A stretch of DNA of 64,000 nucleotides, taken from positions 1 to 64,000 of the IMG/VR virus record IMGVR_UViG_3300045971_000195. One strand, given 5' to 3'. Below the pieces are notes generated by a model that was given only the letters and a program-made list of their open reading frames with translations, was not told the DNA's origin and ran no database searches. Each line of letters opens with the position of its first letter. Positions within the stretch are counted from its first letter, which is position 1. The position numbers and the translations under genes are program-made. Positions 22,936 through 24,354 of the stretch are shown in pieces. This DNA is from a virus (lineage: Duplodnaviria > Heunggongvirae > Uroviricota > Caudoviricetes).

Positions 22936-24354
22936 TCAAAAGTCGTAACGTTCCTTCATGATCGACTTCAACATGATGCCTTCTGGTGTGAATTCATCCA
23001 TGTCTGCACCTAGCAATGCTGCGACAATAGCTGGGCTAAAGCCGCTAACCAATGCTGCACCGGACTTGTCTGCCTTAACAGGTGTGTTGTCGGAACTGTT
23101 TAGGTTCCAGAAAACAACTTGTGGCATTGTGTAGCCTGCTGCTTCGTACTTACGTTCGATCATTTGCATGGCCGAGTCGTCGTGCGATACACATTGGTCG
23201 AATTGCATGTCCGACAAGATCAATACCATTGCTGGCATATCAGCTTGTGGAACAGAACCCTTAACTGCAACATCAAGGATCTTTGCAAATGCCTTGTTGA
23301 TGTCAGTGTTCATTGCCCACTTAGACTTAACCATTTGATCCATCTTTTGGATGATATCACCCTTTAGGGTTAACAGTTCTGGCGAACCAGAGAATGTCAA
23401 GAAGGTGTCCTTGAACGCACCCTTGTTCTTGTCAGCTAGGTACAAGCCCAAGCTAACTGCAACGTCCAAACAGGTTGTTACACCTGAACCAGACTTGCCA
23501 CCTGCTGCGCAGGTCATCGAACCAGATACGTCAACTAGAGGTAGGATACTTGCGTCACCTACGTAGTTTGGCAATGCGTTCCATTGCGCGATGATGTGAT
23601 CCTTTTCAGTCTTGTTGTAGCTGGCACCGTAGGTACCAATGCCCTTCAAAACATCGTATGGGAACACTGCTGCGGCGTTAACCTTAACAGACGGGTCACC
23701 CTTCACCAATGCTGCAACGTATTCTGCAAACTTAGGTGTGTTACGGCTAAATGCCTTCTTGTAACGAGCCGAAGCTACAGATGGAACATGCGAGAAGTTG
23801 ATGTTATCCCAGTCCTTTGCGCACATCGCGGTTTCAACAACAGTAGTCATTGTAACCAACGACTTACGGTATTGCTTTGGAGTCATTCCAAAGAATGCAC
23901 GAACTTCCGCAGCAATCTTACCCTTACGAGGGGTCCACTTTGCAGCAAGACCATTTTGCGCACGAAGCGCATCACCTAACAAAGTGTAAGCCGCTGTCTT
24001 TAGCTTAGGAGTTTGGAATACGAACAAGTCATCCCAACGTCCAAGTTCCGGAACCTTGGCCAACAGAGCTAGGGCACTGTCTGGATCAGTCTTTTCCAAG
24101 TGAGTTAGGATATCACGGAACAGTTGACGTTCACCTGCTCCACCACGGGCATCACGGGCCCACAATGCGATACGCATTGCTAGTTCCTTGTCCTCTGCGT
24201 AAGCCGCAGTGAATGCTGGAACAATATTCTTACCACGGCTTGCACCGATGTTGTAGAACAAGTCTACAGTCGCCTTAGCAGACGACTTACGTGCCTTCAT
24301 ACCGTTTGCGGTGCGGGCTTCTTGGTTGGCGATTGCCTTTACAAATGCGTTCAT
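22936..24354 (-). CDS. vWA-domain protein with large alpha-helical N-terminal domain (DUF2828-like; possibly TROVE/Ro60-related)
   Basis: 472 aa; MIDAS 'LVDVSGSMTC' and 'LILSDMQFD'; N-terminal helical region. Confidence 0.55.
   Translation of the reverse strand: MNAFVKAIANQEARTANGMKARKSSAKATVDLFYNIGASRGKNIVPAFTAAYAEDKELAMRIALWARDARGGAGERQLFRDILTHLEKTDPDSALALLAKVPELGRWDDLFVFQTPKLKTAAYTLLGDALRAQNGLAAKWTPRKGKIAAEVRAFFGMTPKQYRKSLVTMTTVVETAMCAKDWDNINFSHVPSVASARYKKAFSRNTPKFAEYVAALVKGDPSVKVNAAAVFPYDVLKGIGTYGASYNKTEKDHIIAQWNALPNYVGDASILPLVDVSGSMTCAAGGKSGSGVTTCLDVAVSLGLYLADKNKGAFKDTFLTFSGSPELLTLKGDIIQKMDQMVKSKWAMNTDINKAFAKILDVAVKGSVPQADMPAMVLILSDMQFDQCVSHDDSAMQMIERKYEAAGYTMPQVVFWNLNSSDNTPVKADKSGAALVSGFSPAIVAALLGADMDEFTPEGIMLKSIMKERYDF

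Follow-up and report, generated by a model that had tools for sequence, protein, structure and literature searches.

A family of structured small RNAs encoded beside Ro60-like DUF2828 genes in phages

The gene and the predicted fold of its product

The 64,000-nucleotide (nt) stretch analyzed here, positions 1 to 64,000 of the IMG/VR virus record IMGVR_UViG_3300045971_000195 (Caudoviricetes; hereafter, the window), is part of a large uncultured freshwater phage. On its minus strand it carries the gene of a Ro60-like protein of the DUF2828/DUF7788 family and, directly upstream, a tandem array of small RNA modules, both of which are described below (Table 1).

Membership of the protein in DUF2828/DUF7788 (PHROG 850) was clear from both Pfam scores, which lay above gathering: DUF2828 (PF11443) matched at residues 160–261 (E 6e-23; 81.8 bits vs. 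a cut-off of 29) and DUF7788 (PF25043) at residues 273–451 (E 9e-48; 162.9 bits vs. a cut-off of 27.1), while PHROG 850 (‘RNA-binding protein’) covered the protein end to end (residues 1–472; E 1.6e-140). In the AlphaFold2 (AF2) model (pLDDT 91, pTM 0.90), helices extend up to approximately residue 260 and are followed by an alpha/beta von Willebrand factor A (vWA) domain. When this model was compared with the PDB by Foldseek, the top eight matches were all Ro60/TROVE structures (E 7.9e-9 to 7.3e-6; 508–549 aligned columns; TM 0.45–0.64), among them Xenopus Ro (1yvr, 2i91), a Thermus-phage TROVE protein (9kop), Deinococcus Rsr (2nvo) and human Ro60 (9nf8, 9nep, 9nen). The matches after these covered the vWA domain alone (E ≥ 9e-4; approximately 220 columns). 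The model thus assigns the full-length protein the Ro60/TROVE fold, a predicted helical ring closed by the vWA domain.

At the sequence level, a PDB search with the single protein returned no match, and a profile of alignment A2 (124 homologues, 35–89% identity) made only marginal contact with the Ro60 chains (E ~0.1). Alignment by hhalign with a true TROVE protein, gp220 of mycobacteriophage ET08, was partial (residues 182–309; 79% probability, E 1.6e-5). Pfam TROVE (PF05731) was absent from the matches of the window protein at E ≤ 1, the positive control ET08 gp220 scoring 168 bits. The product is therefore a protein of predicted Ro60 fold in a Pfam family separate from TROVE. The residues of the metal ion-dependent adhesion site (MIDAS; D275, S277, S279, T350 and D382) were invariant both in A2 and in an eight-lineage set (A1), as were K139 and the RDxRGGxGER motif (R67, R70, G72, G74, E75, R76); W140 was invariant across A1 and at least 90% conserved in A2.

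A first-pass annotation of this stretch had described a 472-amino acid (aa) open reading frame (ORF) with a MIDAS-bearing vWA domain behind a helical domain, which is borne out by the ORF, Pfam, AF2 and the invariant residues. The kinship with Ro60 and DUF2828 that it proposed is backed by the top eight Foldseek matches and by hhalign to ET08 gp220.

The Ro-likeness of DUF2828 phage proteins was already known and is not new here. In 706 of 50,697 deposited phage genomes, tblastn found homologues, none of which reached 48% identity; the FelixO1/Bas63, A511, Twort-like and cluster L model phages are among these genomes. Metagenomic homologues formed at least 7,999 non-redundant clusters (90% identity). 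Some of those in GenBank carry the label ‘Ro-like RNA binding protein’ or ‘RNA-binding protein’, and jumbo-phage surveys count ROT/TROVE proteins among RNA-repair components. In the Felixounavirus Bas63, gp130 is Ro60-like, lies beside tRNAs and counters the Ppl defence system, and its authors guessed that some of the ‘tRNAs’ are Y RNAs (bioRxiv 10.1101/2024.10.10.617714); over-expression of LeBron gp53 was moderately toxic (PMC13148394). In the searchable literature, that guess was the only mention of an RNA partner of DUF2828 proteins. Hence, the protein is of a known kind, and it is the RNA family that appears to be new.

A family of RNA modules upstream of the gene

No credible ORF is present in the 1036 nt that separate the gene from the nearest tRNA upstream. 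By reading this stretch together with the upstream regions of related loci, a recurrent module was noticed, for which a pattern scan was then run. The module consists of uUUUAG, a 7-nt strand, nUnCAGCAA, an insert, an A-rich tract, the complementary 7-nt strand and GUU. In the common core, the two ends pair over 7 bp to give a terminal stem (P1). Next to P1 lies an internal loop of asymmetric build, formed by NNCAGCAA, which comes right after the 5′ strand, and opposite it by the A-rich tract; the 3′ end carries a GUU tail, and the variable insert is attached to this core. Each of the 11 copies that the scan returned in the window is on the minus strand, and P1 covaries among the window copies (AGGATAG/CTATCCT, AGGATCA/TGATCCT, AGGTTCT/AGAACCT, AGGATGT/ACATCCT, AGGGTAG/CTACCCT, AGAGTGA/TCACTCT and TGGATGA/TCATCCA).

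Six modules stand in tandem directly upstream of the gene and on its strand (24365–25385), namely five larger ones (25385–24406; m1 to m5 in Table 1) and a mini copy (24401–24365) that forms the 5′ untranslated region (UTR). The mini copy ends 2–3 nt before the ribosome-binding site (RBS) GAAGGA, with the ATG at 24354; in the related loci L009 and L052, the RBS likewise follows directly after the 3′ strand of P1. An internal block of m4, AUAGAAAGUGGUCGNAGGAC, is common to the related locus L061, and m2 contains a T-arm-like hairpin and a conserved 3′ tract, AAAAAGUAcAAAAC. The sigma-70-type promoter between m1 and m2, as read from its consensus match, would drive m2–m5, the mini module and the gene as a single transcript.

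According to their inserts, the modules fall into several classes. Minimal copies (52–67 nt) hold only a small internal hairpin. In class A RNAs (approximately 110–140 nt), the variable region (V) is followed first by a canonical T arm (GGUUCGAnUCC), then by a 7-bp acceptor hairpin that is closed, and last by a canonical D arm (UAGCUCAGUGGUAGAGC); their insert thus has the parts of a tRNA body in circularly permuted order. Classes B and C (100–270 nt) share conserved termini and internal blocks (alignments A6 and A7; window 24406–25181 and relatives), for example GAGUUUCGAUUUCUC followed by AAAAACAAAAAGUAGACAAC, and also GAACCGAUAUACUGGGGAUGGGG; their RNAalifold consensus recovered only P1 and one hairpin.

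For class A, RNAalifold found P1, the T arm, the acceptor stem (AS) and the D arm unaided, with compensatory changes in 19–20 of 23 pairs (alignment A3). Pair counting in A3 gave 94.5% of cells paired vs. 63.5% in shuffled and approximately 41% in slid controls. In A4, which comprises 32 sequences from at least eight lineages (consensus AGGnUnn-nUnCAGCAa ... nnAnCCU-GUU), 96.8% of cells were paired and 22 of 23 pairs were compensatory, figures that lean towards the structure since this alignment had been fitted to the model. P1 was also assessed without such bias in 71 distinct RNAs gathered with a pattern silent on P1: a perfect 7/7 stem was present in 53 of them, compared to one of the 71 with a displaced control heptamer. 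Finally, a covariance model (R1), built from 13 class A RNAs of the window’s clade, detected two further class A copies in the window, at 35851–35967 and 36136–36258, together with all the minimal modules.

A tRNA-shaped isomer of the class A RNAs

The first-pass annotation had also proposed tRNA-like Y RNA partners, pointing to two over-long tRNA-shaped RNAs (13332–13433 and 33664–33788) and to structured DNA downstream of the gene (22785–22935). The idea was right in spirit and mostly attached to the wrong loci, as only 33664–33788 belongs to the family; the strongest candidates are the tandem modules at 24365–25385, along with 35851–35967 and 36136–36258.

The 125-nt RNA at 33664–33788 is indeed tRNA-shaped. 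It scored 37 bits with the Rfam tRNA model (threshold 29), only by skipping 62 nt in the anticodon arm, its fold z-score was −2.4, and ARAGORN with introns allowed read it as tRNA-Gly(UCC), placing a 44-nt ‘intron’ at position 32/33, which is non-canonical. Its anticodon loop is replaced by ...AAAAAAG-CGCAUCCU-GGCA-AGGAUGU-UUUCCGCAC..., that is, by the 3′ and 5′ strands of a module joined by a tetraloop, with a CCGCA motif variant that is seen in class A members too. When cut in silico within the tetraloop and closed at the acceptor end, it became collinear with the class A RNAs, and its D arm is identical to that of one of them. It is thus the un-permuted isomer of class A. An ordinary intron-containing tRNA was set aside for this locus, given an insert that falls short of the size of a group I intron, is placed at position 32/33 and corresponds to the module arm; identity as a YrlA was likewise set aside.

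The other two loci were unsupported as members of the system. No Rfam match at E ≤ 1, no ARAGORN call and no R1 match was obtained for 13332–13433, and its z-score was −0.14. This 102-nt stretch (minus strand) has a 6–7-bp terminal stem, a T-arm-like hairpin and an encoded ACCA, and may be a degenerate tRNA-like gene. The region 22785–22935 folded no better than shuffles (z −1.25), gave no R1 match and holds little beyond the terminator-like hairpin at 22793–22810; it was therefore dropped as a Y RNA.

Linkage between the modules and DUF2828 genes across phages

The distribution of the modules was determined in related loci, where 154 lay on the gene strand and four on the opposite strand, with four in the reversed-sequence control. 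Across 44 non-redundant related loci, module density was 1.72 per kb in the 700 nt upstream of the ATG vs. 0.072 elsewhere, a 24-fold difference, while tRNA density was equal in both zones (1.36 vs. 1.35 per kb). At least one module was present within these 700 nt in 37 of the 44.

R1 also identified members in isolated phages. Full-length class A RNAs beside the DUF2828 gene scored 67 bits each in the Felixounavirus AYO145A (Escherichia phage; L083 8428–8556) and in the Mooglevirus Mordin (Citrobacter phage; L093 7447–7567), both in unannotated DNA inside tRNA arrays. In AYO145A the RNA family region (L083 7755–8556) lies partly beneath an opposite-strand ‘hypothetical protein’ coding sequence (CDS; gp131), which is probably a mis-annotation. 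Two tandem copies (63 and 62 bits) occupy the gap just upstream of the DUF2828 gene of Enterococcus phage EFDG1, and one of 55 bits the gap just downstream of that of mycobacteriophage DuncansLeg, where three modules abut the gene and only one tRNA lies within 5 kb. Further full-length matches adjoining the gene were found in Bacillus phage vB_BcoS-136 (53 and 44 bits) and Synechococcus phage BUCT-ZZ01 (46 bits). Three tandem copies in Aeromonas phage Ah1 (41, 39 and 25 bits) were covariance-model matches only, with a variant motif. Direct reading also showed modules on the upstream side of the DUF2828 gene, three in tandem adjoining it in A511 and two in Campylobacter phage F357.

A relaxed pattern (7-bp Watson–Crick stem, N2-4, CAGCA, ..., G) applied to 14 distant loci gave 32 matches on the gene strand vs. 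four on the opposite strand; matches clustered beside the gene in nine of these loci, and a single module was located 49 nt upstream in Fusobacterium phage FNU2. Taken together, modules adjoin DUF2828 genes in phages of E. coli, Citrobacter, Listeria, Enterococcus, Bacillus, Mycobacterium, Campylobacter, Synechococcus and Fusobacterium, and probably also in the Aeromonas phage.

In the reverse direction, IMG/VR was scanned with a pattern describing the RNA only (CAGCAA, T loop, D loop, permuted order), which matched at least 120 stretches. Among 80 loci fetched, 72 had an R1 match of at least 44 bits, and 25 of these 72 encoded a DUF2828 homologue within their short flanks, many only 22–47% identical to the queries. 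Gene and RNA were on the same strand in 27 of 27 pairs (the 25 loci plus two with weaker RNA matches), 15 of them within 800 nt.

In the tRNA region of T5, which comprises 25 tRNAs, no R1 match exceeded 22 bits, and such scores corresponded to junctions of adjacent tRNAs. As a separate observation, the annotation of T5 (L098 10285–13084 and 20849–21567) lists eight ‘stable RNAs with unknown functions’; some of these resemble tRNAs, and the class A model matches none.

Comparison with known Ro–Y RNA systems

Scans with Rfam YrlA (RF02553) and Y_RNA, models that the first-pass annotation had named for checking its RNAs, gave no match in the region 22600–27300, which contains m1 (E ≤ 1), or elsewhere in the window (gathering score), and the positive control from ET08 worked; the modules were therefore not assigned to either. 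ET08, which has a true TROVE protein, possesses a YrlA (37 bits with the Rfam model) and no CAGCA module beside its Ro gene. R1 detected this YrlA with 37.6 bits, through the T-AS-D part only, the P1/CAGCAA part being deleted.

The system nevertheless resembles the Ro60/Rsr–YrlA pairs of Salmonella, Mycobacterium and ET08 in several respects. Both have a protein that combines a helical-repeat ring with a vWA/MIDAS domain, predicted here from the model. In YrlA, the paired ends enclose the order V, T, AS, D (Chen et al. 2014, PMC4201824), comparable to the terminal stem that encloses the permuted tRNA-like domain in class A; and the genes of Rsr and YrlA share a strand and lie no more than 4 kb apart (PMC4201824), as do the window gene and m1, which is 0.9 kb upstream of it. 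Bacterial Rsr–YrlA–PNPase complexes have also been described. The differences concern both partners. The 5′ end of class A lacks GNCGAAN0-1G, with no CGAA there, and instead the 7-bp P1, NNCAGCAA and the 3′ GUU make up the protein-proximal module; the CAGCA modules form tandem arrays of up to six with several insert types; and the window protein is DUF2828+DUF7788, whereas ET08 gp220 is TROVE+vWA_Ro60. From the comparison of ET08 with the DUF2828 phages, there are therefore two protein families and two RNA families, in which the tRNA-like domain is shared and the protein-proximal module is different.

A second relevant system is that of the Thermus phage phiLo, whose phiRo60 protein binds Yrl1 and Yrl2, encoded upstream of its gene, and the host PNPase (PMC12135203). 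Here too, a phage protein of Ro60 fold has RNAs of stem–internal loop–stem build directly upstream (PDB 9kop, 9l5y), and 9kop was the fourth-best structural match of the window protein (E 1.7e-8). However, phiRo60 is deposited as a TROVE domain protein, its RNAs carry CGAA, and no tRNA-like domain or tandem array has been described for them. Further, its binding to the RNAs and PNPase is experimental, whereas that of the modules by DUF2828 proteins is predicted. Closest on the protein side are Bas63 gp130 and LeBron gp53, apparently of the same family: the Felixounavirus and cluster L homologues are 33–37% identical to the window protein, share DUF2828+DUF7788 and lie beside a tRNA array. Those reports left the RNAs unidentified, and a specific RNA family is defined here.

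A further likeness was detected outside phages. In a permissive scan, Rfam Dicty_Class_I_RNA (RF01414) matched all three minimal modules scanned (33796–33857, 38852–38912 and 39081–39142) over model positions 1–56, at 20.8, 17.4 and 15.6 bits, far below the gathering score of 41.5. Class I RNAs are approximately 60 nt long, start with AAG, end with CUGU, and have a stem conserved in structure only with a motif beside its 5′ strand (Kjellin et al. 2021, PMC7919456). Minimal modules share the length, low GC content, terminal stem, UUACAGCAA after the 5′ strand, A-rich tract and CUGU end; the Rfam Class I consensus reads GaUcuC-CUUACAGCAAU-...-AAAAA-GagAuC-UG, where the phage modules have nUACAGCAA after the 5′ strand. 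Unlike the phage modules, Class I RNAs have eukaryotic hosts and a known direct binder, the RRM protein Rnp1A/CIBP. They have been reported as unique to Dictyostelia, and one of four proteins from their pull-down is uncharacterised. The likeness may be convergent rather than a sign of homology. Pfam lists DUF2828 in eukaryotes and viruses. A wider proposal, that CAGCA-module RNAs are the universal cognate RNAs of DUF2828 Ro-like proteins and that this ribonucleoprotein (RNP) also exists in eukaryotes, with Class I RNAs homologous and working with a DUF2828 protein (candidate, the pull-down protein DDB_G0281243), strikes us as a long shot.

Genomic setting and other features of the window

The window encodes approximately 45 tRNAs, every one on the minus strand, as well as a GOLLD RNA and a Polynucleobacter-1 RNA. 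No near-identical genome was found among GenBank phages, and relatives were located on IMG/VR contigs as long as 378 kb. All tRNAs of 80 related metagenomic loci were on the strand of the DUF2828 gene. Across unrelated lineages this gene is located in or beside a tRNA array, often near RNA-repair genes: it adjoins tRNAs in Felixounavirus, Mooglevirus, A511, EFDG1, vB_BcoS-136, F357 and DuncansLeg; an RNA ligase gene stands directly upstream of it in Yersinia phage fHe-Yen9-04 and Salmonella phage Munch; and an RtcB-type ligase, a second RNA ligase and a phosphohydrolase are encoded near it in A511. The metallophosphoesterase of the window is a possible RNA end-healing partner of the Rnl1-type ligase.

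Table 1. Coordinates of the gene, the RNA modules and neighbouring features in the window
Position	Strand	Feature	Evidence
22793..22810	minus	Terminator-like hairpin GCCCAC-UUCG-GUGGGC, then UUUCU; between gene and tRNA-Arg	Sequence, fold
22936..24354	minus	DUF2828/DUF7788 protein of predicted Ro60 fold, 472 aa	ORF, Pfam, PHROG, AF2, Foldseek, hhalign
24365..24401	minus	Mini CAGCA module, gene 5′ UTR; P1 AGGUUAU/GUAACCU; motif AUACAGCAA	Sequence; R1 19.4 bits
24406..24619	minus	Module m5, 214 nt, class C; P1 UGGAUGA/UCAUCCA; motif AUACAGCAA	
24627..24864	minus	Module m4, 238 nt, class C; P1 AGAGUGA/UCACUCU; motif UUACAGCA	
24874..25044	minus	Module m3, 171 nt; P1 AGGAUAG/CUAUCCU; motif variant GUUCAGCC	R1 22 bits
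25054..25181	minus	Module m2, 128 nt, class B; P1 AGGGUAG/CUACCCU	R1 27 bits
25210..25238	minus	Putative sigma-70-type promoter TTGACA-N17-TATAAT between m1 and m2; 12/12 consensus positions	Consensus match only
25258..25385	minus	Module m1, 128 nt, class A: P1, GUUCAGCAA, permuted tRNA-like domain	RNAalifold, covariation; R1 81 bits
27734..27830	minus	Module, 97 nt; P1 AGAAUGA/UCAUUCU; motif UUGCAGCAA	Relaxed pattern scan; R1 18 bits
28016..28130	minus	Module, 115 nt, T arm near 3′ end, just upstream of tRNA-Leu	Pattern; R1 26 bits
28526..29440	minus	Rnl1-type RNA ligase, within tRNA array	Pfam RNA_lig_T4_1, 9.5e-19
29683..30231	minus	Calcineurin-like metallophosphoesterase	Pfam Metallophos, 1.4e-5
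33664..33788	minus	Un-permuted isomer of class A; open acceptor stem, encoded CCA, D and T arms	Rfam tRNA, ARAGORN, permuted alignment
33796..33857	minus	Minimal module, 62 nt, 7 nt upstream of RNA 33664–33788	Pattern; R1 36 bits
35851..35967	minus	Class A RNA, top-scoring copy in window	R1 87 bits, E 3e-15; outside training set
35981..36043	minus	Minimal module, 63 nt	Pattern; R1 35 bits
36136..36258	minus	Class A RNA	R1 59 bits; outside training set
38852..38912	minus	Minimal module, 61 nt, just upstream of tRNA-Asp	Pattern; R1
39081..39142	minus	Minimal module, 62 nt, just upstream of tRNA-Asp	Pattern; R1

Several large RNAs were found in the same surroundings. A distance of 1.7 kb separates the Ro-like gene from the GOLLD RNA upstream of it in the window (26051–26479, minus strand, probably extending to approximately 26900; 196.6 bits), and GOLLD also lies upstream in the related loci L022 (1478–1941) and L061 (77–541), with a tRNA inside each linker. 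In A511 (L085), a ROOL RNA at 3507–4058 (87.5 bits, E 3e-16; below the gathering score of 99.1) is located approximately 0.95 kb upstream of the DUF2828 gene. As specific partners of the protein GOLLD and ROOL were rejected, since neither was present within ±6 kb in nine of 11 metagenomic loci scanned; their link to the gene therefore probably runs via the tRNA array. A weak selenocysteine-tRNA-like match (27043–27128, minus strand; 36.7 bits, gathering score 47) was obtained in the non-coding stretch beyond GOLLD, and in Synechococcus phage BUCT-ZZ01 (L086 1737–2137) unannotated DNA approximately 4 kb upstream of the DUF2828 gene encodes a permuted-type transfer-messenger RNA (tmRNA; 112 bits). 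The Polynucleobacter-1 RNA motif of the window (63221–63367, minus strand; 87.5 bits, gathering score 37) fits a freshwater phage, possibly with a betaproteobacterial host.

The tRNA array also carries protein-coding cargo, all of it on the minus strand: a flagellin with N and C domains (15487–16308), a Band-7/SPFH protein (17702–18682), a hemerythrin-like protein directly downstream of the Ro-like gene (22235–22669), and a BLUF blue-light sensor (30413–30904) adjoining a response-regulator receiver (31723–32124). A Band-7 protein is encoded near the Ro-like gene in mycobacteriophage DuncansLeg too.

Discussion

The fold, the RNA family with its structure, and the genomic linkage in both directions were computed directly; from these we infer binding, an effector and a biological role. 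We regard it as reasonably probable that the phage Ro60-like DUF2828 ring protein forms RNPs with small RNAs of a dedicated family whose genes adjoin its own. The DUF2828 ring would bind the P1/CAGCAA core, most likely the protein-binding site, which can be likened to the stem–bulge module (GGUCCGA / GNCGAA / CGAA) by which Ro60, Rsr and phiRo60 bind Y RNAs. On this core would hang the different inserts: a small hairpin in minimal modules, the YrlA-like permuted tRNA domain in class A and larger domains in classes B and C. If YrlA and Yrl1/2 are a guide, host factors that recognise tRNAs or degrade RNA, such as PNPase, would be recruited or decoyed by the inserts, above all by the tRNA-like domain. 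Such an RNP could protect, survey or repair the phage tRNA complement, in whose array the Rnl1 ligase and the phosphoesterase are also encoded, and could counter RNA-directed host defences. With the mini module immediately 5′ of the RBS, the protein may in addition repress its own translation, so that an autoregulatory loop may exist.

Several results weigh against this interpretation. Judged by Pfam sequence models, the window protein is not a TROVE member, and Rfam YrlA gave no match at E ≤ 0.1 in five phage loci (L083–L086 and L088). The linkage is also incomplete: a search of ±5 kb gave neither a convincing module nor a convincing class A RNA in four to five of the 14 distant lineages, namely in Yersinia phage fHe-Yen9-04, Vibrio phage QD01, Salmonella phage Munch and Staphylococcus phage PG-2021_22, and, if its variant-motif matches are discounted, in Aeromonas phage Ah1; and 47 of the 72 loci found through the RNA had no DUF2828 gene within their short flanking DNA. 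The fitting of A4 to the model, mentioned above, belongs here as well. Finally, six minimal modules precede ordinary tRNA genes in the window, so the modules could be leader or processing elements, with a link to the gene that is regulatory rather than partner-like.

This last point leads to the chief alternative, which we consider unlikely: that the modules act in cis, as leader or processing elements in the transcripts of the tRNA array (RNase entry, antitermination or stabilising 5′ structures) read by host enzymes. The DUF2828 gene would then carry modules merely as a member of the array, and its clients would lie elsewhere, e.g., damaged or misfolded tRNAs threaded through the ring. In line with this, only 5–10 nt separate the six minimal or short modules from the tRNA genes downstream of them, sigma-70-like promoters precede modules both in the window and in the related locus L047, and tRNAs and modules are all on the strand of the gene. 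However, at equal tRNA density, the stretch just upstream of the gene has 24 times the module density of the remaining array, DuncansLeg has three modules at the gene with its single tRNA within 5 kb, and the T5 tRNA array has none. Processing elements would also leave the conserved permuted tRNA-like domain and its closed isomer at 33664–33788 unaccounted for.

It is less probable still that the protein acts mainly as a MIDAS/vWA protein–protein adaptor that neutralises a host defence protein, as Bas63 gp130 might with Ppl, the RNAs being irrelevant. The invariant MIDAS is consistent with such a role, as are the activity of gp130 against Ppl and the moderate toxicity of LeBron gp53 (bioRxiv 10.1101/2024.10.10.617714; PMC13148394). 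Yet the full-length fold is predicted to be an RNA-binding ring, the linkage to the RNAs is kept across phyla and in both directions, and Ro60 proteins retain the MIDAS site as well and act as RNPs. Hardly credible is the notion that class A RNAs are circularly permuted tRNA genes (cf. the red alga Cyanidioschyzon merolae), turned into working tRNAs by cutting at P1, circularisation by the ligase and opening of the acceptor loop: the order 3′ half, loop, 5′ half, the canonical T and D arms and the nearby RNA ligase genes would fit, but joining the ends yields no 5-bp stem with a 7-nt anticodon loop, a conserved asymmetric loop of more than 25 nt (CAGCAA / A-rich) separates the anticodon-stem remnant from P1, the closed isomer keeps the same arm in place of an anticodon loop, and a tRNA part is missing altogether from minimal modules.

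DUF2828 ‘Ro-like’ proteins are widespread and one homologue is a proven counter-defence gene, while their RNA partners had so far only been guessed. The defined RNA family and its covariance model provide experimental handles, namely the short core (P1 + CAGCAA), the YrlA-like domain and the copy over the RBS, and allow unannotated gaps and ‘pseudo-tRNAs’ of phage tRNA arrays to be reclassified. If the proteins and RNAs do form RNPs, the Ro–Y RNA design would have a second, parallel protein/RNA lineage, with possible connections to the large ornate RNAs (GOLLD, ROOL) that these arrays contain and to the Class I RNAs found in social amoebae.

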